A stretch of DNA of 43,756 bases from Bacteroidota bacterium. Its GTDB lineage: Bacteria; Bacteroidota; Ignavibacteria; UBA10030; UBA6906. Location of the stretch: the NCBI GenBank assembly GCA_038247945.1, contig JBBRUI010000003.1, positions 1 through 43,756 of the forward strand. The letters are read 5' to 3'. Made by a program: the position numbers and the translations under genes. The notes under the pieces were generated by a model. The model did no database searches, was not told the origin of the DNA, and saw only the letters and a list, made by a program, of their open reading frames with translations. Of the stretch, positions 1,601-27,256 are shown in pieces (the stretch's first letter is position 1; each line of letters begins with the position of its first letter).

Positions 1601-3202
1601 ATGGCCCTTCGGCTGATTTGGGGAAGGACGCGTGCCCGTCATCGGTTTACACACGCAGAAGTCACACTCGTTCTTCTTGTTCTGATACTGTTCTTCTCCC
1701 GATGCGACACTGTTGATCCTCCGCCGCCGGCTGTTGTTCCGGCAACCGCACTCCTTTCTCAATCCGAAGTCGAATCCATTCTCGCCCACGCTGTCGAGCA
1801 AGCACAGCGAGTCAATCAAAAAGTCATCGTTGCAATTTCGGACCGCGAAGGAAACATCCTCGGTGTGTTCAGAATGACGGGGGCGCGATTGGATTCCACT
1901 CTTGTTCAGGTCAATGGATTATCGGTGAGCGTAACCAACATCGACATTTCCATTCGGAAGGCGCGTACAGCAGCATTTCTCAGCAGCAACCAAAATGCGT
2001 TTTCGACCACGACCGCAAGCTTCATTACACGTCCGCATTTTCCTCCGGGCGTTTCCAACACTGCGGCGGGTCCGTTGTTCGGTGTTGGATTTTCGAGCCT
2101 TCCGTTTGGCGATATCATGCCCAACGGCAGCGCTCTAAACGACAAGCCCGGCGGCATTCCGATTTACAAAGGGGGAATTCTTGCCGGTGGGGTTGGCATC
2201 ACGGGCGCAACTTCGCAATTCGATTCGGTATTGTGCACAGGACAAAGTCTTGATGAGACCATCGCGCAAGGTTCGCTTGCCGAATTTTCAGTTCCTCCGG
2301 AGAAGCGGGGCGACAATATTTTTATAGATGGAATTCGATTTCTCTACGCGAATACGACAATGCCCGGAGGGAATTTCACACTCACGTTTACGTCCGCATT
2401 GACGTTCGGGGCAATTGAAGCCGCGTATCCGACACGAGGAACACCCGCCCAAAAATTTCCCGCTGCTGGCGTAGTAATGTTGGGGGGTCCATTCGACTTT
2501 CGAATCAGAGGAAGCCTGTTAGGAGGCCTCTCGGAATCGGAAGTTCGGAGAATAATTGATCAAGCCGCAGGGCAAGCCGCAAAAACGCGTGCGGCAATTC
2601 GTCGCCCGGTTGGCGTTGCTGCACAGGTGTTCATCTCGGTAGTTGATGTCGACGGCTCCGTCCTCGGTATCTGGCGAACTCCCGACGCAACGATCTTCAG
2701 TTACGACGTGAGCGCGCAAAAGGCGCGGACTGCGCTAGCGTTCAGCAATCCGGGCAAAGCGGGATTTGGCGATGTCATTCGCGGCATCCTTGGCCTTACC
2801 TCAACACAGCCGCTGGCGATGACAACACGTGCGGTTGGATTCTTAAGCCAGGATTTCTACCCGCCGGGCATAGACCGTGACTCTCTCGGCATTCGCCGTG
2901 AACCGGGTCCGTTGTTTGAAGGAACCGATTTTAAGTATCAGCGACGCTTGCTGGGACTCGCCGGTTTGCCGGCGTATGGCAATGGCATTACAATTTTTCC
3001 CGGCGGCATTCCTCTGTACAAGAACGGCGTACTCGTTGGTGCGATCGGGATCAGCGGTGATGGGGTGGATCAGGATGATTTGATTGCGTCTGCCGGGACT
3101 GTCGGGTTTGAGGCGCCGTCTGCTATCCGGTGCGATCAGTTCTTCTACAAAAATATTCGCCTTCCGTATATCAAAACTCCACGCAATCCTGAAATCCAAT
3201 GA
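1601..3202 (+). CDS. Exported (probable lipo)protein with two GlcG/HbpS heme-binding domains
   Basis: Two copies of the pattern (V/I)xxxDxxG...KARTA...PGGIP(I/L)YK.G.L.G.(V/I)GI(T/S)G; hydrophobic N-terminus ending FSR-C. Confidence 0.85.
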   Translation: MALRLIWGRTRARHRFTHAEVTLVLLVLILFFSRCDTVDPPPPAVVPATALLSQSEVESILAHAVEQAQRVNQKVIVAISDREGNILGVFRMTGARLDSTLVQVNGLSVSVTNIDISIRKARTAAFLSSNQNAFSTTTASFITRPHFPPGVSNTAAGPLFGVGFSSLPFGDIMPNGSALNDKPGGIPIYKGGILAGGVGITGATSQFDSVLCTGQSLDETIAQGSLAEFSVPPEKRGDNIFIDGIRFLYANTTMPGGNFTLTFTSALTFGAIEAAYPTRGTPAQKFPAAGVVMLGGPFDFRIRGSLLGGLSESEVRRIIDQAAGQAAKTRAAIRRPVGVAAQVFISVVDVDGSVLGIWRTPDATIFSYDVSAQKARTALAFSNPGKAGFGDVIRGILGLTSTQPLAMTTRAVGFLSQDFYPPGIDRDSLGIRREPGPLFEGTDFKYQRRLLGLAGLPAYGNGITIFPGGIPLYKNGVLVGAIGISGDGVDQDDLIASAGTVGFEAPSAIRCDQFFYKNIRLPYIKTPRNPEIQ

Positions 3203-4917
3203 TCTCTTTCTCTCAAAATGATGGAAAGCTTTTTTGCGGGTTGATCGGGTTGATGATTATTTCTCTTTGGTCAACGTCGGCTCTGGGACAGATGAAGGAA
3301 TCACAAGCCGGTAAAGATTCCCTAAAAGCCGTGGCTGATTCCGCGACCGGACGGCAGGGGTTGATGGACTTTGAAGTAATAGAGAATCGCTGGCGCATAA
3401 AAGCTCCGCCTCATGAACTCAGTGTTGAAGGCAGTGTCATCGATCCCTACAACCAAAATGTGTTGAAAGGCGATTATCCGATCATCGGGCAGAACACATT
3501 TTTTATTCTTACTGCTGCTGCGGAGAATTTCGTCGAAGCTTCACGCACTCCGACACCCAGCGGCGTCAGCTCAATCGATCCGAAGAGCGAAGACTTTTTT
3601 GGAAGAGGTGAAAAGTTATTTGTAAACGAAAGCGCCAGGCTAAGCTTTGAGTTGTATGGCGGAGATGTCGCATTCAGGCCGCGTGACTGGGAGTTGAAAG
3701 TAACTGCAGTGTTTAACCTCAACTACATCAACACAAAAGAAAACAACGGCGACAATATCAATGTGCGAAAAGGAGACGACCGCACAGACCACCACATTGC
3801 TTTTCAGGAATTGTTCTTCGAGAAACATCTGTTCAACGTGAGCGATCGGTTTGATTTTGTTTCGATGAAAATCGGCATTCAGAAATTCGGCAGCGATTTC
3901 AGAAACTTTATTTTCAGCGATTTCAATCTCGGCGCACGCCTATTCGGCAATTTGAATTCAAACCGCATTCAATGGAATCTGATCTACCTGCCGATGCTTG
4001 AAAAAGAAACGAACAGCGAGCTGAACACTGTCTTCGAAAAAAGGGAACAGGATGTCGCAATTGCCAATGTGTACATACAGGATTGGCTCGCGCTCGGCTA
4101 CACAACACAGTTCAGCGTTCATTACAACCATGATAAGCCGAGCGTTCACTTCGATGAGAACGGATTTCCGGTTCGTCCTGCAGTTGCCGGCAACACGAAG
4201 CCGCACGACATCAAAGCGTATTACGCCGGATGGACGGGCGACGGACATTTCGGATGGCTGAACATCACACACGCATTCTATCAGGTATTCGGCGAAGATG
4301 ATTTCAATTCGTTTGCCGGAAAGAAAATCTCCATCAATGCACAGATGGCGGCGCTTGAGCTTTCGGTTGATGACGATTGGCAGCGCTTCCGCATTTCGGG
4401 ATTCTACGCTTCAGGTGATGACAATATCAGCGACGACGTTGGGAAAGGGTTCGATGCAATCGTTGACGAGCCGGTCTTTGCGGGCGGCGCATTCAGTTGG
4501 TGGAATTCCCAGCGAGTGGGATTGCAGGGCGTCGGACTTGTGCAGAAAAAAAGTTTTCTCAACACGCTGCGCAGCAGTAAGACGGAAGGTCAGGCGAACT
4601 TCGTCAACCCCGGACTTCTTCTCGCTAACATTGGTTACGACGCCGACATCACGCCAAAAATAAGAGCAGTTCTCAACGTCAACTATCTTCGGTTCGTCAA
4701 CACGGCAGTGCTGGTTGATTTCACGAATCAGAATTCAATCCACAAACAAATCGGGCTTGATTTCAGTCTGGGTGTCATTTACAGGCCGTTCCTGAACAAC
4801 AACGCGATCTTCACATTCGGATTCTCTGCCCTATCCCCGATGGCGGGGTTCAGAGATTTGTATAAGACAAATCAGATTCAGTATGCGTTCTTCACGTCGT
4901 TGGTGTTTACGTATTGA
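3199..4917 (+). CDS. Putative outer-membrane beta-barrel (porin-like) protein
   Basis: Signal peptide, many amphipathic strands with aromatic residues, BAM-type C-terminus YAFFTSLVFTY; ATGA overlap with the upstream gene. Confidence 0.75.
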   Translation: MISFSQNDGKLFCGLIGLMIISLWSTSALGQMKESQAGKDSLKAVADSATGRQGLMDFEVIENRWRIKAPPHELSVEGSVIDPYNQNVLKGDYPIIGQNTFFILTAAAENFVEASRTPTPSGVSSIDPKSEDFFGRGEKLFVNESARLSFELYGGDVAFRPRDWELKVTAVFNLNYINTKENNGDNINVRKGDDRTDHHIAFQELFFEKHLFNVSDRFDFVSMKIGIQKFGSDFRNFIFSDFNLGARLFGNLNSNRIQWNLIYLPMLEKETNSELNTVFEKREQDVAIANVYIQDWLALGYTTQFSVHYNHDKPSVHFDENGFPVRPAVAGNTKPHDIKAYYAGWTGDGHFGWLNITHAFYQVFGEDDFNSFAGKKISINAQMAALELSVDDDWQRFRISGFYASGDDNISDDVGKGFDAIVDEPVFAGGAFSWWNSQRVGLQGVGLVQKKSFLNTLRSSKTEGQANFVNPGLLLANIGYDADITPKIRAVLNVNYLRFVNTAVLVDFTNQNSIHKQIGLDFSLGVIYRPFLNNNAIFTFGFSALSPMAGFRDLYKTNQIQYAFFTSLVFTY

Positions 4918-4992
4918 GTGATTTGATATTCGCAATTCGGTGTTCCTTGTTCGACATTGGTTTTCCGAATCATGAATATTGAACAAGGAAGT

Positions 4993-5017
4993 TTGTCCGA
5001 AGGACTCCTTCGGAGAA
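4993..5017. repeat. REP-like palindrome, copy 1
   Basis: TTGTCCGAAGGACTCCTTCGGAGAA (9-bp perfect inverted repeat), identical to 11486-11510. Confidence 0.85.
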
Positions 5018-5071
5018 CGATGAAGTTTTCCAGGAACCAGTTGAGACTCACGAGTATTGAAGGTGTGTAGG

Positions 5072-8000
5072 ATGAACATTGTTACTCGATGCTCCTTAAA
5101 ATTTCTTTCGTTGATGTTGCTGCTACCGTTGTGCACCCCATGTTCTCGCGCGCAAGAGAACAACCTCATCAACCAAACCCAAGCCGACGCCGACCGCAAA
5201 AGCAAAGGCTGCATTACATGTCACGGCGGCATCGAGCCGATGCACAAGAGCACAGCAGTCAAGCTTGGCTGCGTTGATTGTCACGGCGGTAATGCCGATG
5301 CAACGACGATAAAGGACGGACACGTCCAGCCAAAATACGCGGAGCGTTGGAAGACTTCTGCAAATCCCGAGCGGACGTACACGCTGCTGAACGAAGAGTA
5401 TCCCGGTTACGTCCGCTTTGTGAACCCCGGCGATTTGCGCTCTGCAGACAAAGCGTGCGGGCCATGCCACAACCAATCTTCCGACCCGATTGTGCGCAAC
5501 GTGCAGAAAAGTATGATGACAACGTCCGCATTATTGTTCGGCGGCGCAGCGTATAACAACGGAATACTCCCCACAAAAAACTATGTACTTGGAGAGAGTT
5601 ACAGTCCGGAGGGCAAGCCGCAGCGCATTAACACCGTTCCCGCACCGAGCGCGGAGGACATGAAGAACAAGGGCGTGCTGCCGTTTGTGCTTCCCCTGCC
5701 GCGATGGGAAATCACCCAGCCGCCGGATAACTTCCGGAGTTTCGAGCGCGGAGGAAAAGTTTCCCGCATCAATCCGTCTGATATAGGAATTCCGAATCCG
5801 TTTGAAGAACCGGGACGACCGGACAATAAACTCAGCGACAGAGGAACAGGGACTCAACTTCGCATCAGCTCGCCGATACTGAACATCCATAAGAGTCGGC
5901 TCAACGATCCGCATCTTTCATTTCTCGGAACGAATGACCATCCCGGCGATTATCGTTCAAGCGGATGCACGGGTTGTCACGTTGTGTACGCGAACGATCG
6001 CTCGACTTTTAATGCAGGACCGTATGCAAAGTTCGGCAACCGTGGCCAATCGCAATCTGCCGATAAAACAATATCGAAGTCTGAGCCGGGACATCCTATC
6101 AAACATCAATTCACACGTTCTATTCCATCCAGCCAGTGCATGAGCTGTCACATGCATCAGCCGAATTCTTTTGTCAACACGTATCTCGGTTTTCAGATGT
6201 GGGATTATGAAACGGATGGCGAGCAAATGTATCCGAAGCAACAGAAATATCCGACGGCTTCGGAATCTTTTTCCATGCTTGAGAAAAATCCTGAAGAAGC
6301 TGTGCTGAGAGGAAACTGGAGCAATGAAGAATTCCTTGCGAACGTCAGCGGATTGAATCCGCAACTCTCTCATACTCAGTTCTCTGATTATCACGGTCAT
6401 GGCTGGGTGTTTCGCGCCGTGTTCAAGAAGGATCGAAAGGGAAATCTGTTAGATAAGGACGGCAAGATCATTCCAGAGAATTCTCCGTTCAAGTTCGAGG
6501 GTGTTGTTCCGGTTGAAGGAGTTACACCGAAGGCTTCTGTTGTTGGAAGTCAAAAATCGCAGAAGGCCGTCCATCTCAAAGACATCCATCTCGAAAAAGG
6601 AATGCACTGCGTTGATTGTCATTTCAAGCAAGATGTACACGGAAATGGAAATCTCGTCGGAGAGTTTCACAATGCAGTTGAGATTCAATGCGTTGATTGC
6701 CATGGAACAGTTGGAGCAAAAGCGGCTCTCAAGACATCCGGAGTTGCCGCGCCGGCGGGCGGAAGTGATTTGAGCGAGATGTATACACCATTCGGCGAGC
6801 GACGTTTTCGAAAATCCGGCGGAAGAATTACGCAACGCTCCACGTTGGTCGATACGCTTCAATGGGAGATTCTGCAAACTGCAGACGCACATAAATCCAA
6901 CAAGAAAGCTGAAGCTGCCCATCTGATGATGAGAGATGGAAGAATTGGAAAGTCGGGAACGGATGAGGATATGCTCGCCCATTCATACAAGAAAATGGAA
7001 TGTCAGAGCTGCCACACGTCGTGGATAACAAACTGCTTCGGATGCCATTTGCCCCAGCAAGCGAACTGGAAGAAGCAGATGAACCACTACGAAGGAGAAA
7101 CCTCGCGCAACTGGACGAGCTACAATCCGCAGATTGCACGCGACGAAGGCTACATGCTCGGCATCGCAGGAACGACGAAAGGAAATAAAATTACGACCGT
7201 TCGCTCGTCGAGCGCGCTGGTGTTGAGTTCAGTGAATGCAAACCGCGAACAAATCTACAATCAGCAAGCGCCGATTTCTTCACCGGGGTTCAGCAGCCAG
7301 GCGTTCAATCCGCATTTCGCTCATACCGTCCGAGCAACGGAAACGAGAACATGCACGGACTGTCATCTCTCATCAAAAAATGATAACAACGCGTGGATGG
7401 CGCAACTGCTGTTGCAGGGAACGAACTTTGTGAACTTCATGGGAAAGTACGTTTATGTTGCAGCGGGGAACGGCGGTGTCGAAGCGGTGCAAGTGACCGA
7501 GCAGGATGAGCCGCAAGCCGTCATCGGGAGTTATCTGCAATCTCTGGCTTATCCGGATAACTTCCGGGAACACACGCAGAAAAAAATGGAGCTCCAAACC
7601 TCCTACCATCACGGCGGTGAGATTCTGAATGCTCAGTTGCGCGGCGAATACTTGTTTGCTGCGTGTGGTGAGGGCGGCTTCCGCGCCTACGATGTGGCGA
7701 ACATTGACAACAAGGGATTCTCGGAACGCATCATTACATCACCCGTTTCCGCGTTCGGGCAGAATACGCATGTGAAATCCCGCTACGCGACGGCTGTCGC
7801 ATTGCCGACGACTATGCCAATCGATACGCGGCGAGTTTACAGGCCGGAGAATCAGGAGCAAGGTCCTCTTCATCCTTTGTATAGCTACGCGTACATCACG
7901 GACAAGTATGAAGGACTGATTATTGTCGACGTGATGAATCTGGTCGATGCCGACCCGCGCAATAATTTTCTTGAACGGGCTTTGACATTTAATCCCGATG

Positions 8001-8761
8001 GTATGTTGAACGGCGCCGTGAACCTGACAGTTGCAGGCAAGTACGTTTACATCTGCTGCGACCGCGGGATCGTCGTCCTCAATATCGACGACCCATTGAA
8101 ACCACGGGTCGTAGGAGAAGTTGGAACGGCATTCATAAAGAAGCCCAAAGCAATTGCAGTTCAATTCCGTTACGCGTTTGTATGCGATGCTGAAGGAGTG
8201 AAGGTCCTCGATCTGACACTAAAGGAAGAACCAAAGCCGGTGAAGGGGAGTTTTATTCCTCTTCAGGATGCAAACGACATCTATGTTGCGCGAACATATG
8301 CTTACGTTGCTGCAGGGTCCCAGGGTCTTGCGATACTCGATGTGGAAAATCCGGAAGCGATGAAGATCGAAAAAATCTTCACTGCCGATGGCGTCATCAA
8401 CGATGCACAGGGAGTGAAGGTGGCGTCAACGAACGCGAGTTTGTTTGCGTATGTTGCCGATGGACGGAATGGCTTGAGGGTTATTCAATTGACGTCGCCG
8501 AAAACTGTTCCCGGATATCTCGGTTTCAGTCCGAAGCCCGCGCCGCAACTGATTGCAACGAAGAGGATGAGCGGCCGCGCCCTTGCAGTTTCCAAAGGAT
8601 TGGACAGAGATAGGGCGGTTGATGAAAGCGGCAATCAGGTGAGTGTGTTCGGAAGGCTTGGCTCCCGTCCGTTTACACTGGAAGAGATGCAGCGGATGTA
8701 TATGAAGGATGGAAAAGTTTGGACGGTGGCGGATGATGGAATCATCAAATATAAGAAATGA
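5072..8761 (+). CDS. Exported decaheme c-type cytochrome fused to a C-terminal LVIVD-repeat beta-propeller
   Basis: Ten CxxCH motifs (CITCH, CVDCH, CGPCH, CTGCH, CMSCH, CVDCH, CVDCH, CQSCH, CFGCH, CTDCH) followed by YAYV/A...GL.I.DV repeats; signal peptide. ATG at 5072 preferred over TTG at 5057. Confidence 0.9.
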   Translation: MNIVTRCSLKFLSLMLLLPLCTPCSRAQENNLINQTQADADRKSKGCITCHGGIEPMHKSTAVKLGCVDCHGGNADATTIKDGHVQPKYAERWKTSANPERTYTLLNEEYPGYVRFVNPGDLRSADKACGPCHNQSSDPIVRNVQKSMMTTSALLFGGAAYNNGILPTKNYVLGESYSPEGKPQRINTVPAPSAEDMKNKGVLPFVLPLPRWEITQPPDNFRSFERGGKVSRINPSDIGIPNPFEEPGRPDNKLSDRGTGTQLRISSPILNIHKSRLNDPHLSFLGTNDHPGDYRSSGCTGCHVVYANDRSTFNAGPYAKFGNRGQSQSADKTISKSEPGHPIKHQFTRSIPSSQCMSCHMHQPNSFVNTYLGFQMWDYETDGEQMYPKQQKYPTASESFSMLEKNPEEAVLRGNWSNEEFLANVSGLNPQLSHTQFSDYHGHGWVFRAVFKKDRKGNLLDKDGKIIPENSPFKFEGVVPVEGVTPKASVVGSQKSQKAVHLKDIHLEKGMHCVDCHFKQDVHGNGNLVGEFHNAVEIQCVDCHGTVGAKAALKTSGVAAPAGGSDLSEMYTPFGERRFRKSGGRITQRSTLVDTLQWEILQTADAHKSNKKAEAAHLMMRDGRIGKSGTDEDMLAHSYKKMECQSCHTSWITNCFGCHLPQQANWKKQMNHYEGETSRNWTSYNPQIARDEGYMLGIAGTTKGNKITTVRSSSALVLSSVNANREQIYNQQAPISSPGFSSQAFNPHFAHTVRATETRTCTDCHLSSKNDNNAWMAQLLLQGTNFVNFMGKYVYVAAGNGGVEAVQVTEQDEPQAVIGSYLQSLAYPDNFREHTQKKMELQTSYHHGGEILNAQLRGEYLFAACGEGGFRAYDVANIDNKGFSERIITSPVSAFGQNTHVKSRYATAVALPTTMPIDTRRVYRPENQEQGPLHPLYSYAYITDKYEGLIIVDVMNLVDADPRNNFLERALTFNPDGMLNGAVNLTVAGKYVYICCDRGIVVLNIDDPLKPRVVGEVGTAFIKKPKAIAVQFRYAFVCDAEGVKVLDLTLKEEPKPVKGSFIPLQDANDIYVARTYAYVAAGSQGLAILDVENPEAMKIEKIFTADGVINDAQGVKVASTNASLFAYVADGRNGLRVIQLTSPKTVPGYLGFSPKPAPQLIATKRMSGRALAVSKGLDRDRAVDESGNQVSVFGRLGSRPFTLEEMQRMYMKDGKVWTVADDGIIKYKK

Positions 8762-9759: not shown

Positions 9760-9808
9760 ACAATGGAATAACAATGTCGGCACAAACAAAAACAATGAAT
9801 CAACAAAG

Positions 9809-11560: not shown

Positions 11561-11574
11561 TTTCAAAAGGAAAA

Positions 11575-18050: not shown

Positions 18051-18052
18051 CA

Positions 18053-19765: not shown

Positions 19766-19791
19766 TTGTTCATAATGGAAGGGAAAGAGCA

Positions 19792-20808
19792 ATGAGAAAA
19801 GCGAAATATATTCTGGCGATGGCGTGCTGTGTTGCGTTCGTTTGCAGTACGTTGAATGCGCAAACAAATATCGGGAAGAAGCTGGATGAAGCGATGAGGC
19901 TGTATAATTCTGCAAACTTTGATAAAGCGATCGTGCTATTATCACAATTGGCAGAAGACAAAACCGTCGAGAGCAAAGACAAGAAAAATGTTCTTCTCGC
20001 CCTCGGCCGATCGTACATCGCAAAAGGAAATAAGAAGGGAGCCACGACGGCGATGCTGAAGCTGCTGGAGTTGGAACCGCCGATCATCGAGCCCGACCCC
20101 GACGCCGAGTGTCCGCCGTTGATGAAAGTTTATTACGAAGCGAGAAAATCAAAATCCGGCACAATGCAGGTTGAGCAGCGGAACGATCCCGGCATCAAGA
20201 CAATTGCCATCCTCGATTTCGCAAACCGTTCCGTCGACGATAAAAATAAATATGATCCCCTGGAAAAAGGTTTTGCGGAACTCATGATCGATCAGCTCAA
20301 TGGTTCTGTAAATCTAAAAGTCATTGAACGTGAGAGGATCCAATGGATTTTGAATGAGATAGGATTGGAAAACGATCCCGGGAAGTTCGATCAGTCGTCC
20401 GCGGTGCGTGTGGGTAAGCAGCTTGGTGTTCATTCCATCCTCCTGGGAAGCTTCATCAAAGTGAAAGACAACATGAAGCTGCTCGCCCGGCTGGTAAAAG
20501 TAGAGACGAGCGAAATTATTGCAACGGAACAAAGCAACGGCGATGCCGATGAGTTTTTTGAGATTGCAGAAAATCTCAGCGTGAAGATCGCAAAGAAAAT
20601 CAATGCGTCGCTCACGAAAGCCGAAGTGGAAAAGGGAACCGAAACCAAATCGCTTGACGCCATGATGTCGTATTCCGAAGGGCTCGTTCTTCTCGAAAAG
20701 GGGAACTACAAAGGCGCATATGAAAAATTCATGCTTGCTCTTCAGATTGATCCCAGGTACGACAAGGCACGGATGAAAGCCGAGAGCCTGAAACCGTTGC
20801 TCGGGTAA
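19792..20808 (+). CDS. Exported TPR protein with CsgG/HfaB (FlgO/TolB-N-like) domain
   Basis: Signal peptide ending LNA-Q; TPR-like helices; IAILDF...KVIERERI...AVRVGKQLGVHSILLGSF...RLVKVETSEII. ATG at 19792 preferred. Confidence 0.8.
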   Translation: MRKAKYILAMACCVAFVCSTLNAQTNIGKKLDEAMRLYNSANFDKAIVLLSQLAEDKTVESKDKKNVLLALGRSYIAKGNKKGATTAMLKLLELEPPIIEPDPDAECPPLMKVYYEARKSKSGTMQVEQRNDPGIKTIAILDFANRSVDDKNKYDPLEKGFAELMIDQLNGSVNLKVIERERIQWILNEIGLENDPGKFDQSSAVRVGKQLGVHSILLGSFIKVKDNMKLLARLVKVETSEIIATEQSNGDADEFFEIAENLSVKIAKKINASLTKAEVEKGTETKSLDAMMSYSEGLVLLEKGNYKGAYEKFMLALQIDPRYDKARMKAESLKPLLG

Positions 20809-20895
20809 TTTAGATTTGTCGAATGACTACACTCCATCCAGTGCGGGAGGGAAGAGAGTCGATGCCGGACTAGTATTCACTGCAACGGAATTCCC

Positions 20896-22179
20896 ATGCG
20901 GAATTTGTTCTTTGCTTTTCTTTTGATCATTACCCTTTCTTCGTGCGCAACTGTAAAGTTTGACAGCGCACCAACGGACTACGTCGCCGACCTTGCCAGG
21001 CTGCAACGCCAGCTCCTTATCCGCCCAAACGACCCGACGCTCTTACGCGACCTCGGCACTCTCTACTTCCAAGCAAAGAAATACAATGATGCCCGATCTC
21101 CGCTGTTTCGTTCGTACGGGTTAAAAGCAGATGACCCGCGTACAATTTTTTACTACGGAATGACGCTTGAGTATCTCACCGAGAGTGAAGCGGCACTGCG
21201 TGTCTACATCAATTACACGGACGTCTCATCTTTTTCTCCTTATCGCAAGCTGATTGAAGGACGTTACCGCATCCTGACAAGAGAAATCGTCCAGCAACAG
21301 TTCCAGGTTCTTCTCGCGAACGAGCAAAAACTGGGGACGGAAAGAATTGTTCCGAAAGCTGTAGCGGTTTTTCCACTCGCGTATCAGGGAACTGACTCAA
21401 AGTACAATGCGCTTGGAAAGGGATTAAGCGAAATGATGCTCATCGATCTCGGCCAGGTGAAAAGTCTGACGATGATCGAGCGGATTCGCATCGAAGCGCT
21501 GCTGGGAGAATTGCAATTCGGTCAATCAAATAAGGTCGACCGTGCAACGGCGCCGCGCCTCGGAAAGTTGTTGGGGGCGGGGAAGATTGTTTCAGGCGCG
21601 TTCAATGTCAGCAACAACAATCTCCGCATGGACGTTGCTGCCTGGGATGTTGTCAACAGAAAATATCCCGAACTCAAAACAAAAATGGACGATCTTGATA
21701 ACCTGTTCGCCGTGGAGAAGGAGATTGTTTTTGGCGTCATCAAAGAACTCGGCATTACGCTGACGCGTGAAGAGCGTGAAAAAGTTCAGTTCATCCCCAC
21801 AAAAAATACTCTCGCGTTTATCAATTATTGTCTCGGACTGCAGAATGACGATGCCCGTGATTTTCAAAGTGCGAAGGTATATTACAACCAGGCTGTTACG
21901 CTTGATCCGAACTTCGGGCTCGCAAAGACAAAACTCGCAGCGGCAGAGGCATTGAATATCGGAGGAGGAAGCAAAGAGAATGCACTGCTGGTTGCCGAAC
22001 AAATTGATCCATCGCGAAAGAAAAAGAAAGACAGGATCAATCTTGTGATGGACAGACTCAACAATCTTGAGAATGGGATCGGCATTCCGTTCAAGCATGG
22101 ACAAGAAGACCGTAAAGGTGCGCAAGAGGCAGCGGATGGAGTCCTTCTCCCGGGACCACCTCCACCACCGAACAGATAG
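20896..22179 (+). CDS. Lipoprotein with TPR repeats and CsgG/HfaB-like domain
   Basis: Lipobox LSSC; N-terminal TPRs; VAVFPL...MIERIRIEALLGE...APRLGKLLGAGKIVSG; C-terminal TPR and poly-Pro tail. Confidence 0.8.
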   Translation: MRNLFFAFLLIITLSSCATVKFDSAPTDYVADLARLQRQLLIRPNDPTLLRDLGTLYFQAKKYNDARSPLFRSYGLKADDPRTIFYYGMTLEYLTESEAALRVYINYTDVSSFSPYRKLIEGRYRILTREIVQQQFQVLLANEQKLGTERIVPKAVAVFPLAYQGTDSKYNALGKGLSEMMLIDLGQVKSLTMIERIRIEALLGELQFGQSNKVDRATAPRLGKLLGAGKIVSGAFNVSNNNLRMDVAAWDVVNRKYPELKTKMDDLDNLFAVEKEIVFGVIKELGITLTREEREKVQFIPTKNTLAFINYCLGLQNDDARDFQSAKVYYNQAVTLDPNFGLAKTKLAAAEALNIGGGSKENALLVAEQIDPSRKKKKDRINLVMDRLNNLENGIGIPFKHGQEDRKGAQEAADGVLLPGPPPPPNR

Positions 22180-22213
22180 GGAACACCGCTACTTACAATT
22201 CGTCTTTTTCTAA

Positions 22214-23302
22214 ATGAACCGAATACTTACGCTAATATTTTGTCTTGCAGTTGTCCATGCGTGGTCGCAACCGCAGTCAGACACTGATGCAGATGTTGTC
22301 AGCCAGCGCGGCTCGTTACGATTAATGCCGCTCTATCAAAACTGGTCGCTTGATAGCATGAAAGTTTCTGAAGCAAGCGTACTTGTATCACTCTATCAGC
22401 CATTAAGTCGTCAAGCGGCAATAACTCTGCGCGGTGCGTTTGCCTCTGCAAGCGGCGACGTTGCGTCGCTAAGCGGTGCAACTGATTTGCAAGTCGCCGG
22501 AAGTTATTACGTGGAGTCGGCGAACATGATGTTCAGTTTGGGACTTGGAATTCCTGTCGGAAAGAAAAAACTGACCACGGACGAATTTATTACTTCCATT
22601 CTTCTTGCCAGCAACACATTCCGTTTCAATGTCTCCCAGTTCGGTACAGGCTTCAACATTACGCCCGGCGTTGTGTGGGCGTTGCCGGTCGGTGACGATG
22701 TTGTGTTGGGACTTGGTGCGACCTATCAGTATCGGGGGACATTTCAGCCTCTTGCAGACTTGGGGACGTTTGACCCGGGAGATGAGATTTCCGGAACTGC
22801 GGGTATTGAATTGAGGCTGAACGAAACTTCAAGTATATCAGCCGACGTTGTCTACACACACATCGGCAAAGATTTGCTGGAAGGAGATGAGATATATGTT
22901 TCCGGCGATAAGATCTTTGCGGCTATGCAATACAAAAAATATTTTGAGTTCAACTCCTTCTTTGTGGGAGCAACATTCCGCAGCAAAGCCAAGTCGGAAG
23001 TTGCGCTGGGAAAATTTCTGGCGCCAAGACTCGAGCCGGATCAACTGGAGATTCTCGGTGCGTACACCGCCCGCTTCAGCGACGCGCTTTCGATGCAGTT
23101 CGCTTTCGAGGGCCGGCTCTTTCAAAAAACGTCAATTGCATTCTCAGGATATAACATGATTGGAGTCGGAGTGATGCCCGAGTTCTCCGTTTCGGAAAAC
23201 GTAACCGTTCCCGTGCGTCTCAAGTTCACATCCGGCAAAGGAAAGAGTAACGGAACGATCACCGGGTTCGAAGCAGGACTCGGAATTACAATCAGTTATT
23301 AA
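22214..23302 (+). CDS. Putative outer-membrane beta-barrel protein
   Basis: Signal peptide, alternating-strand pattern throughout, C-terminus FEAGLGITISY. Confidence 0.75.
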   Translation: MNRILTLIFCLAVVHAWSQPQSDTDADVVSQRGSLRLMPLYQNWSLDSMKVSEASVLVSLYQPLSRQAAITLRGAFASASGDVASLSGATDLQVAGSYYVESANMMFSLGLGIPVGKKKLTTDEFITSILLASNTFRFNVSQFGTGFNITPGVVWALPVGDDVVLGLGATYQYRGTFQPLADLGTFDPGDEISGTAGIELRLNETSSISADVVYTHIGKDLLEGDEIYVSGDKIFAAMQYKKYFEFNSFFVGATFRSKAKSEVALGKFLAPRLEPDQLEILGAYTARFSDALSMQFAFEGRLFQKTSIAFSGYNMIGVGVMPEFSVSENVTVPVRLKFTSGKGKSNGTITGFEAGLGITISY

Positions 23303-23372
23303 AAGAACTCCATCCATTTCTACCAATAAAATGAATTATCGTTGCACAGAAATTATTAGAAAGGATTTCGCC

Positions 23373-25439
23373 ATGAGATCACATACAATCATACTGTCTT
23401 TGATTCTTCTCGTCTCGGCAACGTTTATGGCGAGGGCGCAAGTGCCGCGGTTTATTTCCTATCAGGGTTTGTATACTGATACTCTCGGTGTGCCCAGGCC
23501 CGAGGGCGATTACAGGTTCACCTTCCGTTTCTATGCCGACAGCGTTGGCGGAAGTGTATTGTTCCCTCCGGAAGTCCGGGTGCTGAAAGTAAAGCGCGGA
23601 CTGTTTTCGGTCTTGCTCGGCGGTCAACCGGGATTCGAATCTGTCTTTTCCGGTCCACGGTGGATGAGTCTTCAGGTCGATCCCGATCCGGAGATTTCGC
23701 GGCGCATCCAGCTTGCGGCTACTGCCTACAGCTTCCGTTCCATCCGTTCGGATACGGCGCAGTTCGCGTTTAACGCTCCATTGCAGCAGACAGCAGACAG
23801 TGCACGCATAGCCGGAACGGTGGCGAACAACTCAATTACTTCTGCGAAAATTTTGGACGGAACGATTCAGACCATCGACGTTGCGCCCGGCTTCAAATCG
23901 CCGGACGCTGCAATCGCAGATACCGTCCGCCGCGCACCGCCAACTGTGGTGGCTCCCGGCAGCATCGACAGCATCAAGTTGGCAACGAATGCCGTCGCCT
24001 CATCCAGAATTGCAAACGGTGCTATCACTGCCGCGAAGATTGCAGCCGGCCAGGTTGTGAAGGGTTTAAATGATGTACGAGATAATGTTCGATTGGTGGG
24101 ACGAGGCGCTGCTTCAATCACATCCAGTAACGATACGATATACATCGAAACGCCGCCGCCAACAGGCGGCACCGGAATCCAAAGTTTATCCAACACAAAC
24201 AACACGCTGACGATCGTGAATCCGAACGGCCCGAATGCAATTGCGAACGTGAAAGACGCGAGCATTGGTCCGATACAATTAGCTGATGCCGGCGTTACGC
24301 AGCAGAAGATCGCTGACGCAGCCGTGGGAACGTTGAAGATTGCAGACGGATCCGTGACTCAGTCAAAGATTGCGGCAACCGTCTCGTTTCCTCCCAGCGG
24401 ACCCGCCGGTGGCGATCTTGCGGGCACATATCCGAATCCAACTCTTGCGGCAAGCACAGTGACCACGACAAGGATCGCCGATGGAGCTGTAACACAGTCG
24501 AAGATAGCACCCGGCGTAACGTTGCCTCCGGGCGGAAATGCAGGTGGCGATCTCTCCGGAATATACCCTAACCCCACGCTCGGGGCGACAGGCGTTGCCG
24601 CGGGAACATACGGGTCGGCCACGACTGCACCTCGAATAATCGTTGACGCAAAAGGACGCATCACAAATGCAAGCGCAGTAAACATTGCCGGCGTTCCTCC
24701 GGGCGGAGCTGCCGGCGGTGATCTCACAGGGACTTTTCCTTCGCCAACAATCGCACTTAATGCAGTGACAACAGGAAAAATTGCCGATGGGACGATACTG
24801 TTTCAGGATGTCGGACAGAACGGCGCGGCTACCGGACAGGTAATGAAGTGGACAGGAACGTCCTGGGCGCCGCGGGCAGATTCAATGGGAAGCGGCGGTG
24901 GAGTAACGGGGTCGGGTGGAGTCGGACAAGTTGCCTTCTGGAATTCTTCTTCGAACATCACAAGCACATCATTTTTTATGTGGGATAATCAGAATGCACG
25001 GCTGGGCATTGGTGTTCCCGTTCCGCAGGAAAGGCTGGATGTGGCCGGCACAATCGCGCTTCGCAACATGCCATTCGGATCGGGAAATCCGGTCGGCGTT
25101 GATTCATCGGGACGACTTGTGCGGCCGGGGTCAAGCAAGAGATTCAAAACAAACATACGTCCGCTGGAACCTACACATGTTTTGGATTTGAAGCCGGTGC
25201 GATTCCAATGGAAATCTACGGGAGAAGAAGACATCGGACTGATTGCTGAAGAAGTGAATGAGATTTGTTCGGATCTGGTCGTTATTAATGAAGGAAAGCC
25301 CAGTGGTGTAAAGTATGATAAGGTTGCTGTGTACTTGCTGGATGTAATCAAAGAACAACAGAAACAAATCGCCGAGCTTCAGGTTTCAGTAAAACTCCTG
25401 ATGGACAAAGGCAAATCATCGGTCGGAGATTTGAAGTGA
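23373..25439 (+). CDS. Exported fibre-like protein with C-terminal peptidase S74-type intramolecular chaperone
   Basis: Signal peptide ending ARA-Q, ISYQG N-domain, repeated (A/S)VTxxKIADG and GxAGGDLxGx(Y/F)PxPT units, then SSKRFKTNI...LKPVRFQWK...IGLIAEEV...coiled coil. ATG at 23373 follows AAGGA. Confidence 0.82.
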   Translation: MRSHTIILSLILLVSATFMARAQVPRFISYQGLYTDTLGVPRPEGDYRFTFRFYADSVGGSVLFPPEVRVLKVKRGLFSVLLGGQPGFESVFSGPRWMSLQVDPDPEISRRIQLAATAYSFRSIRSDTAQFAFNAPLQQTADSARIAGTVANNSITSAKILDGTIQTIDVAPGFKSPDAAIADTVRRAPPTVVAPGSIDSIKLATNAVASSRIANGAITAAKIAAGQVVKGLNDVRDNVRLVGRGAASITSSNDTIYIETPPPTGGTGIQSLSNTNNTLTIVNPNGPNAIANVKDASIGPIQLADAGVTQQKIADAAVGTLKIADGSVTQSKIAATVSFPPSGPAGGDLAGTYPNPTLAASTVTTTRIADGAVTQSKIAPGVTLPPGGNAGGDLSGIYPNPTLGATGVAAGTYGSATTAPRIIVDAKGRITNASAVNIAGVPPGGAAGGDLTGTFPSPTIALNAVTTGKIADGTILFQDVGQNGAATGQVMKWTGTSWAPRADSMGSGGGVTGSGGVGQVAFWNSSSNITSTSFFMWDNQNARLGIGVPVPQERLDVAGTIALRNMPFGSGNPVGVDSSGRLVRPGSSKRFKTNIRPLEPTHVLDLKPVRFQWKSTGEEDIGLIAEEVNEICSDLVVINEGKPSGVKYDKVAVYLLDVIKEQQKQIAELQVSVKLLMDKGKSSVGDLK

Positions 25440-25447
25440 GAGATTGT

Positions 25448-27256
25448 ATGAAAACGATTCGTGGCGTGATTTTTCTTCTTGCAGCTCTGTGCGTGCAGAC
25501 TTCTTTCCCGCAGACAGGGAGTATAGAGTCATCGGTGTTCGATGCAGGTTTCGATGTATTGTCGTCAGGATCGTCCCACATTACTTCTGCTGTGGGCCAA
25601 CCAATGGTGCAGGTGGTCGAAAGTGGAAATAAGCGCGTCGAAAGCGGATTCCTCAATTCAATTCTCTTGCGTTCGGGAATCGTCGTCTCTGTTCGTGCTG
25701 ATACAGGTATCCTTGGTCAGCCCGTGGGAGTAACAGTCCGGCTTCCTTCAAGCATTCAAACATTCGCCGAAAGTCTTTTTTATCGCAAAGCCGGAGAGCA
25801 AAGCTTCACTCCCCTTGCAATGCAACGAAGGGGAGACAGCCTGACGGTTTCCATTCCGGGCGCAGCAGTGACGATCCGGGGTGTTGAATATTTTGCCCGG
25901 GCTTCTTCCGATCGCGGAGTTATCCGGGTTCCTGTTTCCGGAGTGGACGGCATTCGGGTGCGTGTGAATCAGTTCAATTCTCCGCTGACATTGACACGGC
26001 GTCTCTATAGAATGATTTCTGTCCCTGCAGAGTTGAATGATTCCTCCGCTCTCGGAGTTTTGTTTGATGACCTCGGTCAGTACAGTGCCACAAGATGGAG
26101 ATTATTCCGTTGGGAGAAGGATAGATATATTGAACACCCGCGCATTAGTTCGCGCTTCACTCCCGGGAAATCATTCTGGCTCGTAACGCAATCCGTCTTC
26201 GGGTTCGATATAGACAACGGAAGATCAGTTACGTCGATTTCGCCTGCAACGATTGTGCTGGATACGGGATGGAATCAGATTGCATCGCCGTTTGCGTTCG
26301 CCGTCAAGTGGTCCGACATAACTGCGACCGGACAAGTGAGTCCGCCATTTTACTATGATGGAATCAGCCCGTACAAACCGGACGCCGATCGGCTGGTTCC
26401 GTGGGAGGGATATTTTGTTGAGAACAAGGCTGCCCGTCCCGTAACGCTTACCATTCCCGCGGTTGAAGCTTCGCCGCTTGCACCAAAAACATCAGAGCCC
26501 AATCCGCTCACCAGCGACCACGATTTCATTGTTCAACTTACTGCTGAATCGGAGGCGAACGGCGTAAGAGATGTGTACAACTATTTGGGGTTTGCGGAAC
26601 ATGCAACGTTAGCAGACGATGCGCTGGACTTGCACGAGCCGCCGCCCGTCGGGGATTACATCCAGTTATCGATTGTTGAAGGACGTTCATTCCTCAGAAA
26701 TTACAAACCACTGACGGCTGAAGGGCAGCAATGGGAATTAAGTATCCACTCAACTTTGTCGAACGTGCAAGCAAGAGTCAGTCTGCATCAATTCGGATCT
26801 CTGCCCGAAGGGTTCAACATCTATGTGTTCGATAAGGATGAGTTCAACCGGATTTCTGTTCAGGATGGATCGTTCATGGTTCAATTACCGCAACAGATGT
26901 CCCCCCGTTCCTTGCGGTTGATAATTGGGACGGAGAACTTCGCTCAGGAACACAGCGGCGGAATCTCGCTCGTTCCGTTCGAGTACGCGCTTGCGCAGAA
27001 TTATCCCAACCCCTTCAATCCTTCAACCACCATCCGCTACTCCCTGAAGAAGCGCAGCGATGTAGTGTTGGAGATCTACAACATGCTCGGACAAAGAGTG
27101 AAAACCTTAGCGTCCGGTGAGCAGGTAACGGGAACATATTCCATTCTCTGGGATGGCACGAACAATTCAGGTTCCTCTGTTGCAAGCGGCGTGTACATCT
27201 ACCGCCTGCGCGCCGATGAGTTTCGTGCGAGCAGGAAAATGTTGATGTTGCGGTAG
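25448..27256 (+). CDS. Secreted protein with T9SS type-A-like / FlgD-Ig C-terminal sorting domain
   Basis: Signal peptide; LAQNYPNPFNPSTTIRY...IYNMLGQRV...WDG...SGVYIYRL...RKMLMLR. Confidence 0.85.
   Translation: MKTIRGVIFLLAALCVQTSFPQTGSIESSVFDAGFDVLSSGSSHITSAVGQPMVQVVESGNKRVESGFLNSILLRSGIVVSVRADTGILGQPVGVTVRLPSSIQTFAESLFYRKAGEQSFTPLAMQRRGDSLTVSIPGAAVTIRGVEYFARASSDRGVIRVPVSGVDGIRVRVNQFNSPLTLTRRLYRMISVPAELNDSSALGVLFDDLGQYSATRWRLFRWEKDRYIEHPRISSRFTPGKSFWLVTQSVFGFDIDNGRSVTSISPATIVLDTGWNQIASPFAFAVKWSDITATGQVSPPFYYDGISPYKPDADRLVPWEGYFVENKAARPVTLTIPAVEASPLAPKTSEPNPLTSDHDFIVQLTAESEANGVRDVYNYLGFAEHATLADDALDLHEPPPVGDYIQLSIVEGRSFLRNYKPLTAEGQQWELSIHSTLSNVQARVSLHQFGSLPEGFNIYVFDKDEFNRISVQDGSFMVQLPQQMSPRSLRLIIGTENFAQEHSGGISLVPFEYALAQNYPNPFNPSTTIRYSLKKRSDVVLEIYNMLGQRVKTLASGEQVTGTYSILWDGTNNSGSSVASGVYIYRLRADEFRASRKMLMLR

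Follow-up and report, generated by a model that had tools for sequence, protein, structure and literature searches.

A PCC4/Ptd-like multihaem redox gene core encoded with forkhead-associated domain proteins and a Ser/Thr kinase and phosphatase in an uncultured Ignavibacteria bacterium

The closest described relatives of the locus reported here are the porin-cytochrome cluster PCC4 and the gene cluster ptdABCDEFG. In the accessible part of He et al. 2017 (PMC5566968), PCC4 is described as consisting of a porin, periplasmic cytochromes of four, five and ten haems and a conserved protein with five transmembrane (TM) segments; in its subgroup II, an iron-sulfur (FeS; pfam13247) gene lies upstream of the 5-TM gene and more redox genes lie upstream of the tetrahaem gene. 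Zeta-, Gamma- and Alphaproteobacteria and Planctomycetes are named there as hosts, and five TM segments with SGXXG on TM4 and WX3HX13H on TM3 and TM5 are given as the inner-membrane signature of PCC3 and PCC4, which is compared with the ferric reductase domain. According to the available part of a preprint (bioRxiv 10.1101/2023.11.21.568154), ptdABCDEFG encodes a pentahaem cytochrome, a porin, an FAD/NAD(P) oxidoreductase, a tetrahaem cytochrome, a protein with cyclic-nucleotide-binding (CNB) and 4Fe-4S domains, a ferric-reductase-like membrane protein and a decahaem cytochrome, and its function “remains completely unknown”; our literature search for “ptdABCDEFG” returned no source beyond this preprint. 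Clusters of the PCC4/Ptd type were reported, in the parts of both sources at hand, from iron oxidisers, nitrite oxidisers, marine oxygen-deficient-zone Alphaproteobacteria and Planctomycetes (PMC5566968; bioRxiv 10.1101/2023.11.21.568154). In this study, we describe a block of 16 genes in which a core of this type appears to be coupled to forkhead-associated (FHA) domains, a PP2C-type phosphatase and a Hanks-type Ser/Thr kinase. It lies in a stretch of 43,756 nucleotides (hereafter the window; contig JBBRUI010000003.1, positions 1 to 43,756 of the forward strand, assembly GCA_038247945.1) from a Bacteroidota bacterium (Ignavibacteria; UBA10030; UBA6906), which is an uncultured sediment bacterium.

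FHA domains have been reported beside multihaem cytochromes in another setting. In the “NHC” trio of the Fe(II) oxidiser Ferrigenium straubiae, a 5-TM and a 4Fe-4S protein accompany a nonahaem cytochrome whose FHA domain is cytosolic; the available part of the preprint calls this combination previously unreported and gives the trio as expressed in every condition tested (bioRxiv 10.64898/2026.01.22.701106). A pangenome of the Gallionellaceae, as far as its text was available, includes a 10-haem “forkhead-associated protein” in 27 genomes (PMC10734462). Apart from the Ferrigenium preprint, our literature searches found nothing relevant on FHA domains with multihaem proteins or on “FHA domain” together with “extracellular electron transfer”, and a search on LVIVD with multihaem proteins found only an unrelated LVIVD protein. 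The term “FHA” is absent from the main texts of PMC5566968 and bioRxiv 10.1101/2023.11.21.568154, as are “forkhead” and “kinase” from the main text of the latter, the supplements lying outside these searches.

Positions 1601-27256 of the window hold 16 co-oriented open reading frames (ORFs) on the + strand, g03 to g18. A sequence-only reading of this DNA had described this layout together with tight junctions at 3199, 8758, 12413, 14004, 17271 and 18053, and the ORF calls bear it out; two further junctions of this kind lie at 19762 and 25436, all being overlaps of 4 nt or gaps of 1-2 nt. The genes at the centre of this study are the following:

8758 to 9759, + strand: g06, c554-like tetrahaem cytochrome with signal peptide, PtdD-like (PF13435, E 5.3e-8)
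9749 to 11440, + strand: g07, PtdE-like protein of the cytoplasm with a ferredoxin domain for four [4Fe-4S] clusters and two CNB-like domains (cNMP_binding, E 1.2e-29; PF13247, E 6.5e-9)
11575 to 12411, + strand: g08, 5-TM inner-membrane protein, like PtdF and the PCC4 inner-membrane protein (conserved His, Gly and Trp; AlphaFold2 model)
12413 to 14002, + strand: g09, PtdG-like decahaem cytochrome c, anchored by one TM at its N-terminus (10 CXXCH; TM at residues 34-52)
14004 to 14936, + strand: g10, cytoplasmic protein of two FHA domains and a linker (FHA, E 1.5e-35, two stretches)
14956 to 17274, + strand: g11, TrxR/YpdA-like two-dinucleotide flavoprotein with the order flavoprotein-FHA-FHA-[2Fe-2S] (Pyr_redox_2, E 2.3e-18; FHA, E 3.8e-20; Fer2, E 8.6e-6)
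17271 to 18050, + strand: g12, PP2C-type Ser/Thr phosphatase (PP2C_2, E 2.8e-15, 56.8 bits, above the cut-off)
18053 to 19765, + strand: g13, Hanks Ser/Thr kinase with one TM and a periplasmic PEGA region (Pkinase, E 5.8e-51, 173.8 bits, above the cut-off; PEGA, E 2.5e-18)

Pfam recovered the domains that the sequence-only reading had named, that is GlcG in g03, LVIVD in g05, cNMP and 4Fe-4S in g07, Pyr_redox_2 and Fer2 in g11, PP2C in g12 and Pkinase with PEGA in g13, as well as the four FHA domains, two each in g10 and g11. Observed directly are the genes and their domain fusions, the synteny and the conservation of cofactor ligands. As a whole, the block can be read as a PCC4/Ptd-type variant that would lead electrons from NAD(P)H to the cell surface without the use of quinones, similar to NADPH oxidases (NOX) in its membrane step and gated at its cytoplasmic end, a reading that we hold to be about as probable as its negation.

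The same earlier reading took the whole assemblage as a candidate undescribed system. For the redox core this has to be revised, as g06-g09 corresponds to PCC4 subgroup II (PMC5566968) and to ptdABCDEFG (bioRxiv 10.1101/2023.11.21.568154) in the parts of these sources that describe the clusters. By sequence comparison the window carries the PtdD-E-F-G core, with g03-g05 standing in place of PtdAB and g11 in place of PtdC. Common to the window and PCC4 subgroup II/Ptd are a tetrahaem cytochrome, a CNB-FeS protein (pfam13247) encoded just upstream of the 5-TM protein, a decahaem cytochrome, a flavoprotein and a porin-cytochrome outer module. Unlike PCC4/Ptd, with its pentahaem cytochrome (PtdA) and porin (PtdB), the window has neither a five-haem protein nor a porin of the PCC4 type, and g04/g05 would take that role; g11 is of the Pyr_redox_2 type with two FHA domains rather than a PtdC-type ferredoxin-NADP reductase (FNR) flavoprotein, so that the role would be alike and the family different. 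The window also differs by its attached genes for an FHA-FHA protein, a kinase and a PP2C, and in that the first CNB domain (CNB-A) lacks an Arg.

The sequence-only reading had proposed a synteny search as a check on the linkage between redox and FHA/kinase genes. A locus scan with one genome per species gave at least 600 pattern matches, and at least 61 loci among the matches listed, all but one in metagenome-assembled genomes (MAGs). The counts below refer to 57 loci with a g11 relative of at least 40% identity, only loci with enough flanking DNA being eligible, and compare ORFs of at least 70 aa with the window proteins by BLASTP. Among the loci listed, the genes upstream of g11 were g10 in 44/49, g09 in 38/43, g08 in 36/42, g07 in 28/36 and g06 in 25/35 eligible cases, and the core g06-g11 occurs in genomes labelled Ignavibacteria, Bacteroidota, Rhodothermales, KSB1, Zixibacteria, Acidobacteriota, Gemmatimonadota, Eiseniibacteriota, Nitrospirota-like and others. 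The linkage is thus present in most of the 57 loci and in many phyla. Some loci are rearranged, with g06 and g07 after g11 or outside the flank (L011, L016, L033, L062). In the window's own genome (4.4 Mb, 92% complete), all four FHA matches (4/4) lie inside this cluster, and relatives place 3/3, 4/4 and, in a third, 4/5 of their FHA domains within it. Because all FHA matches of the genome fall in the cluster and the arrangement recurs across phyla, the association of redox and FHA genes exceeds chance.

In the flavoprotein g11, both GxGxxG-type motifs, for FAD and for NAD(P)H, are invariant in 10 sequences, and its nearest entries in the PDB are YpdA/Bdr and TrxR-type FNRs (best 7a76, E 2.3e-9). 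Its equivalog scores (YpdA 61.8 vs 339.9 bits; TRX_reduct 24.1 vs 343) would place it in the TrxR-type fold group and outside every named family. Proteins of the g11 architecture form a family of 892 members at E<=0.001 among 7999 candidates; the best 120 of the 892 are all at least 55% identical and nearly all full-length. A C-x-x-C at the end of the NAD(P)H domain (residues 296-299, window 15841-15852) is kept to a large extent (C296 in 41/48, C299 in 46/48). In the Fer2 domain, C712 and C717 are found in 48/48 and C757 in 47/48 sequences, and Asp720 (residues 712-720 lie at window 17089-17115), invariant in the 10-sequence alignment, stands where the fourth Fer2 Cys might be expected.

The FHA domains of g10 and g11 differ in how well they keep the residues G-R, S-x-x-H and N, which we take to be the phosphothreonine (pThr)-pocket set of FHA readers. 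In the second FHA domain of g10, G, R, S, H and N are all present in 35/35 sequences, and in that of g11, G and R are found in 48/48, S in 47/48, H in 41/48 and N in 47/48. The first FHA domain is relaxed in both proteins; in g10 the Arg position holds R in 18 and K in 13 of 35 sequences.

Loci of the Planctomycetota allow a comparison with clusters of the published architecture. The g08 profile matched 38/301 sampled Planctomycetota genomes at E<=1e-20, and 8 loci were chosen among the better g08 matches on long contigs. In all of them (8/8), genes like g07, g08 and, with ten haems, g09 follow one another, and 6/8 have a g06-like tetrahaem gene; similarity to the window proteins reaches 29-34% identity and E 1e-70 to 1e-93 for g07, E 1e-19 to 1e-33 for g08, E 1e-10 to 1e-18 for g09 and E 1e-8 to 1e-19 for g06 (6/8 loci). 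A pentahaem cytochrome and a porin, 53-57% and 40-49% identical to their Acidobacteriota-type counterparts, are present in 3/8. In 5/8 (L107, L108, L109, L111, L113), Pfam detected an FNR-type flavoprotein (FAD_binding_6, NAD_binding_1 and Fer2), and these flavoprotein partners show weak “ferric reductase NAD binding” matches. In two of the loci, L107 and L108, an FHA domain is fused to the FNR-type flavoprotein (E 1.1e-14 and 3.8e-15), and the CNB-FeS protein of L107 carries an N-terminal FHA domain (Pfam E 2.1e-10), found in L108 by a small custom hidden Markov model only. An FHA-adenylate/guanylate cyclase gene is encoded divergently from the Ptd-like operon at L110:4457-6223 (-), by Pfam, and at L112:4513-6279 (-), by the custom FHA model.

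FHA domains have thus been attached independently to at least three cytoplasmic components, namely the TrxR-type flavoprotein, the FNR-type flavoprotein and the CNB-FeS protein, and on the strength of these fusions we argue that the cytoplasmic entry is the site of regulation. At the level of domains and synteny, the coupling of a PCC4/Ptd-type core to FHA domains, and often to Hanks kinases, is recurrent and multiply independent, and was not found in the literature searched. That the redox and FHA/kinase genes came together by chance is extremely improbable: a single genome of the genus (G303, see below) speaks for it, against synteny across phyla, independent FHA fusions and the confinement of FHA domains to the cluster.

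The membrane protein g08 would form the link across the inner membrane. Among 34 homologues, H88, H102, H257, H271, G127, G130 and W253 are invariant (34/34), and W84 and S126 are found in 27/34 and 28/34; g08 carries WX3HX13H twice (TM3 and TM5) and SGXXG (TM4), the signature given in the accessible text of PMC5566968. The AlphaFold2 (AF2) model (pLDDT 90.3) has five TM helices and a cytoplasmic helical insert, with H88/H102 on TM3 and H257/H271 on TM5, and the positive-inside rule would put the His pairs at matching membrane depths. We regard g08 as a probable FRD-type (ferric-reductase-domain) dihaem b carrier. Matches of the g08 family to Pfam models are sub-threshold (DUF4405 in 22/34; Ni_hydr_CYTB, a bacterial cytochrome b561 model, in 19/34; Ferric_reduct, PF01794, in 6/34 with a best E of 0.0021), and the nearest Atlas clusters are “ferric reductase like” (0.96). 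The fold matches CybB 5oc0 (Z 8.6), STEAP4 6hcy (Z 7.8), FdnI 1kqg_C (Z 7.4) and b561 4o6y (Z 7.3) lie under ~13, the stated noise level for helical bundles, and a Foldseek fold search gave no match at E<=0.001. The earlier label “cytochrome-b-like” is backed by the four invariant His in 34/34 homologues, but finds no Pfam match for g08 at E<=0.01.

The cytoplasmic FeS protein g07 has neither a TM segment nor a signal peptide predicted, and all of its 16 FeS Cys (16/16), which belong to four ferredoxin-type motifs, are invariant across 29 sequences. Its best PDB match is HycB3 (7qv7_A, E 5e-22), with HycB, ArrB and PsrB/NrfC four-cluster electron-transfer subunits as other near relatives. CNB-A reads PQS in the window and in 4/4 FHA-clade members shown, whereas PR[ST] stands in 6/6 Planctomycetota homologues shown; Q200 is invariant across the 29 sequences, and the second domain, CNB-B, likewise has no Arg. 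The Arg at this position is presumably the phosphate-binding residue of cyclic-nucleotide binders, and g07 lacks this phosphate-binding-cassette Arg of functional cyclic-nucleotide-binding domains. The exchange of Arg in the Planctomycetota for Gln in the FHA clade suggests that the regulatory input differs between the clades. In L110 and L112, where the CNB domain keeps the Arg, there are hints of control by cyclic nucleotides.

For g08 together with the FeS domain of g07 (residues 385-563), a complex prediction with custom alignments reached the mark “weak support” with a score of 0.42 (best of three controls 0.00), its runs agreeing in at least 96% of contacts with a partner pLDDT of at least 74. 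This mark is reached by 58/80 solved complexes and 2/110 mismatched pairs, and at scores <=0.60 by 7/80 and both mismatches; the prediction is not counted here as evidence. Long ORFs that suggested g07-g08 fusions were rejected, the matches sitting in different frames of high-GC DNA.

The c-haem proteins g05, g06 and g09 contain 23 CXXCH motifs (10, 3 and 10, respectively). In addition, residues 32-40 of g06 (window 8851-8877) read CX6CH at a place where homologues of other phyla align CXXCH, and this variant is kept in 8/21 aligned homologues (labelled Ignavibacteria, Bacteroidota, KSB1 and Zixibacteria). Because of this alignment and recurrence, it is very probably a real, fourth haem site of g06 with a four-residue insertion, and the 23 canonical sites plus one atypical site counted from the sequence alone would give 24 c haems, which we consider a fair count. 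The ten CXXCH of g09 are all invariant across 35 sequences, and its short cytoplasmic tail carries the conserved motif KG-x-F...LPVA..Y. Neither g09 (25.1 bits) nor g06 (18.1 bits) belongs to the MtrA/DmsE family (TIGR03508, cut-off 192.2). In Acidobacteriota, Rhodothermales and related genomes (L025:2865-5051, L022:3139-5433, L038:2846-4966 and similar), the frame of the g06 homologue is 640-900 codons long, begins directly after the porin gene and has an extra N-terminal region with one further CXXCH.

Upstream of the core lie the genes of the presumed outer module:

1601 to 3202, + strand: g03, exported protein of 533 aa with two HbpS/GlcG-like domains (PF03928, E 4.9e-29, two stretches)
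3199 to 4917, + strand: g04, likely outer-membrane beta-barrel of 572 aa, AlgE/alginate-export-like (AF2 and Foldseek; no Pfam match)
5057 to 8761, + strand: g05, decahaem cytochrome c with LVIVD beta-propeller region, 1234 aa (10 CXXCH; LVIVD, E 3.3e-14)

The N-terminus of g03 has a hydrophobic segment followed by a Cys, and the protein is possibly a lipoprotein; g03 homologues accompany g04-g05 in L011 and L016. The AF2 model of g04 is all-beta at low confidence (pLDDT 52.6), its top Foldseek match is AlgE (3rbh, E 4e-10), its closest Atlas clusters are “alginate export”, and its C-terminus reads ...FTY. The sequence-only reading had counted two outer-membrane barrels, g04 and g16; given the low pLDDT of g04 and an OMP_b-brl match of g16 below the Pfam cut-off, these are likely rather than demonstrated. 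The decahaem protein g05 has a partial ExtM-like match (95.8 bits vs a cut-off of 800).

The outer module varies between loci. Homologues of g05 were found at 14/57 loci and of g04 at 8, and the position of g04-g05 relative to the core varies: before g06, after g11, or between g10 and g11. The last arrangement is found in two Acidobacteriota MAGs (L024 and L047). In other phyla, 11 loci have, ahead of the core, a cytochrome of at least five haems and a ~450-aa signal-peptide protein with an OMP-like C-terminus; compared with the window proteins, this porin-like protein gave no match better than E 0.06.

Next to the core follow the PP2C g12 and the kinase g13, whose catalytic motifs are intact (in g13 GxGxxG, here GKGGMG, VALK, HRDIK, DFG and SPE, with the TM near residues 311-329), and genes for further envelope proteins:

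19762 to 22179, + strand: g14 and g15, exported proteins with TPR and a CsgG/LpoB-like domain, likely lipoproteins (TPR_2, CsgG; Pfam)
22214 to 23302, + strand: g16, probable small outer-membrane beta-barrel (OMP_b-brl, 24.4 bits vs a cut-off of 28.7; ends ...ITISY)
23331 to 27256, + strand: g17, fibre-like protein with S74 chaperone domain, and g18, surface protein sorted by the type IX secretion system (T9SS) (Peptidase_S74, E 1.5e-9; FlgD_ig, Por_Secre_tail)

A kinase lies in the flank at 19/38 loci with at least 2.5 kb downstream of g11, and a PP2C follows g11 at 10/43 eligible loci. The kinase has the same direction as g11 and lies either behind g11 itself or behind a PP2C placed after it in L005-L009, L012, L039, L047, L050 and L058; it is convergent within ~40-170 nt in L022, L025, L035 and L037, stands between g09 and g10 in L053, and lies divergent upstream together with a PP2C in L034. 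The insertion in L053, a Calditrichia MAG, is a full-length PEGA-type kinase (L053:6336-8282). g14 and g15 accompany the kinase in L005, L006, L008, L009, L012 and L050 and are convergent to g11 in L029, and g16 homologues occur in L006, L008 and L029. Since five kinase-adjacent genomes hold just 17-81 kinase matches each in 4.1-8.6 Mb, we estimate that a kinase would abut by chance in ~1% of cases, a figure that assumes loci unrelated to each other. Among the Planctomycetota, a kinase adjoins 3/8 loci.

Within the genus, g03-g18 forms a co-inherited block. The distribution is patchy: in a sample of the phylum, g11 was found in 5/301 genomes, that is the window's own, 3/4 other sampled genus members and 1/296 of the remaining genomes; in the genus, 8/9 genomes have it. 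The left border of the block is formed by a tRNA gene, the sole match in an Rfam scan of the window:

1379 to 1452, + strand: tRNA-Phe(GAA), left border of the block (Rfam tRNA, 76 bits; ARAGORN)

Upstream of this tRNA gene lie housekeeping-type SIS and SDR genes (Pfam). The whole block stands beside tRNA-Phe in G000, G019, G295 and G314 and beside tRNA-Ala(GGC) in G155:C32 (L093) and G313:C15 (L091), and is broken by contig ends in G311 and G312. At its right end, g17 and g18 move with the block in G155 and G313, and the limits 1601-27256 proposed from the sequence alone agree with the block co-inherited within the genus. Judged by this distribution, the block appears to behave like an island; no att-like repeat of the tRNA end longer than 12 nt was found at the far border, and no integrase-like Pfam match among the window proteins scanned.

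In G303 (100% complete), the exception in the genus, SIS-SDR-tRNA-Phe leads into an unrelated ~400-aa ORF (L081:1394-2611), a PP2C 48% identical to g12 and the contig end, and a second contig opens with a kinase (64% identical to g13), g14 (60%) and a gene resembling g15. Neither g11 at E<=1e-20 nor a remnant of g03-g11 by BLASTX or BLASTN was found, and the single FHA domain of G303 lies elsewhere in its genome. Because G303 keeps PP2C, kinase and g14 without the redox/FHA block, the kinase module can stand alone. Of the tie between the redox part and the FHA/kinase part that the sequence-only reading had proposed, the link of the redox genes with the FHA genes stands, but the PP2C-kinase-lipoprotein part is not obligatory.

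These data bear on an alternative in which conduit and FHA proteins form one machine, with FHA domains acting as phospho-independent scaffolds or as readers of another kinase, and g12-g18 are a separate module for envelope signalling, a mere neighbour of the conduit in this lineage. G303, the presence of a kinase in the flank at just 19/38 loci, the degenerate first FHA domains and the other candidates in the own genome (6 kinase-domain and 3 PP2C matches, also outside the cluster) are all in line with it. We nevertheless consider it rather unlikely, as kinases abut in unrelated arrangements across phyla, far above the prediction from 17-81 matches per genome, as g14-g15-g18-g16 stand convergent beside g11 in the Rhodothermales-like L029, as the whole of g03-g18 is found at two tRNA sites in the genus, and as the second FHA domains have the full pThr pocket.

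On the reading of a gated NAD(P)H-to-surface route, we infer the following order of carriers. NAD(P)H would be oxidised on the FAD of g11 and the electrons passed to the [2Fe-2S] domain of the same protein; g07, by way of its four [4Fe-4S] clusters, would carry them to the membrane, and the two b haems of g08, ferric-reductase-domain-like as in NOX, FRE and MsrQ, across it. The membrane-anchored decahaem g09 and the tetrahaem g06 would span the periplasm, and a lineage-specific outer module, here the porin g04 with g05 and the GlcG-like g03, would deliver the electrons to the surface or to an acceptor. In this clade, the switch would consist of the pThr-reading FHA domains of g10 and g11, with pThr written by the envelope-sensing kinase g13 and erased by the PP2C g12, possibly with input from the lipoproteins g14-g16; in the Planctomycetota relatives, a cyclic nucleotide may act as the switch, the CNB domain there keeping its phosphate-binding Arg. 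A switch would be needed because such a route bypasses the quinone pool and spends NAD(P)H and membrane potential.

Three considerations favour outward flow. In every variant examined, the core is paired with a cytoplasmic flavoprotein-Fer2 of the NAD(P)H type, and two unrelated families have supplied it; the membrane step resembles the ferric-reductase domain, and to our knowledge the known members of the FRD family all move electrons outward; and electrons moving inward to NAD(P)+ would have to go uphill in redox potential and against the membrane potential. The same hardware could also run in reverse, taking up electrons from an extracellular or periplasmic donor such as Fe(II), Mn(II) or a partner cell and passing them to the quinone pool or NAD(P)+. 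Multihaem chains are reversible in principle, as established for Mtr/Mto, which counts in favour of such uptake. PCC4 occurs in Fe(II)-oxidising Zetaproteobacteria and Hyphomicrobium and is modelled as donor-to-quinone in the available text of PMC5566968, and the related FHA-cytochrome/5-TM/4Fe-4S trio is expressed in the Fe(II) oxidiser Ferrigenium, as far as the accessible preprint text goes (bioRxiv 10.64898/2026.01.22.701106). Against this, the partners of the core in every variant examined are an FeS protein of the cytoplasm and a flavoprotein-Fer2 of the NAD(P)H type, with no quinone-site subunit among them, and the reaction would be uphill from a mid-potential donor and against the membrane potential, with no apparent coupling device in g08. 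Taking these points and the outward habit of FRD-family proteins known to us together, we judge reversed flow to be unlikely.

The signalling content of the cluster (two CNB and four FHA domains, kinase, PP2C), together with the FHA-cyclases beside L110 and L112, might also indicate that the chain is a sensor, which reports the periplasmic or extracellular redox state to the CNB/FHA domains and is not a bulk respiratory route. That HbpS-like proteins are partners of a redox-sensing two-component system in Streptomyces also speaks for a sensor. We find this quite improbable: with 24 c-type and two b-type haems, five FeS clusters and a porin module of its own, the chain would carry far more than known redox sensors do, and Pfam scans show that the block encodes no DNA-binding or other output domain.

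Several observations weigh against the gated outward route itself. The Arg of the first FHA domains is replaced by Lys in the window's own g10 and g11, and no phospho-acceptor could be identified, as an invariant Thr was not found in the g09 tail, where the position is T in less than half of the sequences. With no FHA domain within 20 kb at 4/8 Planctomycetota loci, FHA is not universal in the conduit family, and L007, L034, L051, L058 and L060 are without several core genes in the DNA examined. The counts for kinase (19/38) and PP2C (10/43) and the case of G303 loosen the tie to phosphorylation, while the lack of a Pfam match for g08 at E<=0.01 and fold matches within the helical-bundle noise level (Z 7.3-8.6) loosen that to b haems. 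A search of sequencing runs with words of the locus found three DNA runs and no RNA run, one of them a sediment metagenome with 0.83 of the words, so that RNA data covering the locus were not among the runs searched; no experiment on any cluster member was found in the literature searched. Finally, in the model put forward in the available text of PMC5566968, electrons run the other way, entering from a donor outside the cell and ending in the quinone pool.

To the right of the block, a promoter-like site at 27432-27461 (11 of 12) precedes the gene after g18; counts in promoter and terminator scans were not above those of shuffles (15 vs 17.0, 23 vs 25.1, 16 vs 14.5 and 10 vs 17.1). The product of this gene (region 27432-32706) has 1716 aa, is exported and carries DUF7948, Big_9 and cadherin-like domains. 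Further downstream, the window encodes two more T9SS-tail proteins (32798-33919 and 34221-35492), a stand-alone receiver domain, a protein of the NlpC/P60 type and a TonB-dependent receptor. In an enolase-superfamily (MR/MLE) ORF at 37013-38425, the longest frame shows a motif resembling a twin-arginine translocation (TAT) signal at its residues 96-114; this frame overlaps the NlpC/P60 gene before it, and the real start is probably further in. In G155, an MR/MLE homologue comes straight after the block.

A broader proposal can be derived from the comparison of clades, namely that the core is part of a split, NOX-like machine, a switchable “electron valve” from NAD(P)H to the surface without quinone, which opens and closes at its cytoplasmic entry and whose input has been swapped in evolution between a cyclic nucleotide and FHA/phosphothreonine under a Hanks kinase and PP2C. 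The cyclic-nucleotide input would belong to the Planctomycetota (and, by published descriptions, Proteobacteria) and the FHA input to the FCB group, Acidobacteriota and related phyla. We put both the swap and this assignment to clades forward tentatively, as possible but on balance doubtful. If the proposal is true, the locus would provide the first example of extracellular electron transfer controlled directly, after translation, by Ser/Thr phosphorylation, and a rare case of such control in bacteria over respiration-like electron flow; if the flow is inward, the locus would bear on electron entry into lithotroph cells. The relatives of PCC4/Ptd now extend to the FCB group, Acidobacteriota, Gemmatimonadota and others, and an anonymous “porin-cytochrome cluster” becomes a testable model of regulated, quinone-independent electron export. 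Handles for such tests are the NAD(P)H flavoprotein with its own 2Fe-2S domain, recruited twice, the ferric-reductase/NADPH-oxidase-like membrane step and the regulatory hotspot at the entry.

Beyond PCC4/Ptd, the locus shares features with four kinds of known systems. As in the Ferrigenium trio, described in the available part of its preprint, a TM-anchored multihaem cytochrome c stands beside a 5-TM protein without family match and a cytosolic 4Fe-4S protein, with FHA on the cytoplasmic side. In Ferrigenium, however, the FHA domain is on the cytochrome itself, and flavoprotein, kinase and porin are not described in that part of the text. A link by homology from the Ferrigenium and Gallionellaceae proteins to g07-g09 could not be shown: among the matches to the g09 profile in 1.84 billion representatives, N-terminal FHA-cytochrome fusions were found neither in the best 150 of 5065 nor in the 8 scanned with Pfam.

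With NOX, FRE, STEAP and MsrQ, the locus would have in common two b haems on His pairs 13 residues apart, carried by two helices and leading from cytoplasmic NAD(P)H/flavin to the outer face; unlike in these proteins, the dehydrogenase is a separate protein, a 2Fe-2S and four 4Fe-4S clusters are interposed, and the acceptor would be a multihaem chain. The periplasmic and outer-membrane multihaem wire with its porin resembles MtrCAB, MtoAB and PioAB with CymA, ImcH or CbcL, yet the porin looks like AlgE rather than MtrB, the inner-membrane entry is not a quinol dehydrogenase, and membership in the MtrA/DmsE family is lacking.

On the signalling side, the PpkA-PppA-Fha1 system with outer-membrane lipoproteins serves the type VI secretion system (T6SS), and GarA/OdhI control metabolic enzymes. 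The locus is similar in combining a membrane Hanks kinase that has a periplasmic sensor with a PP2C, FHA readers and lipoproteins for the putative control of a machine or enzyme. It differs in that T6SS genes are absent, OdhI/FhaB model matches stay below the cut-off, and the machine under control would here be a redox conduit.

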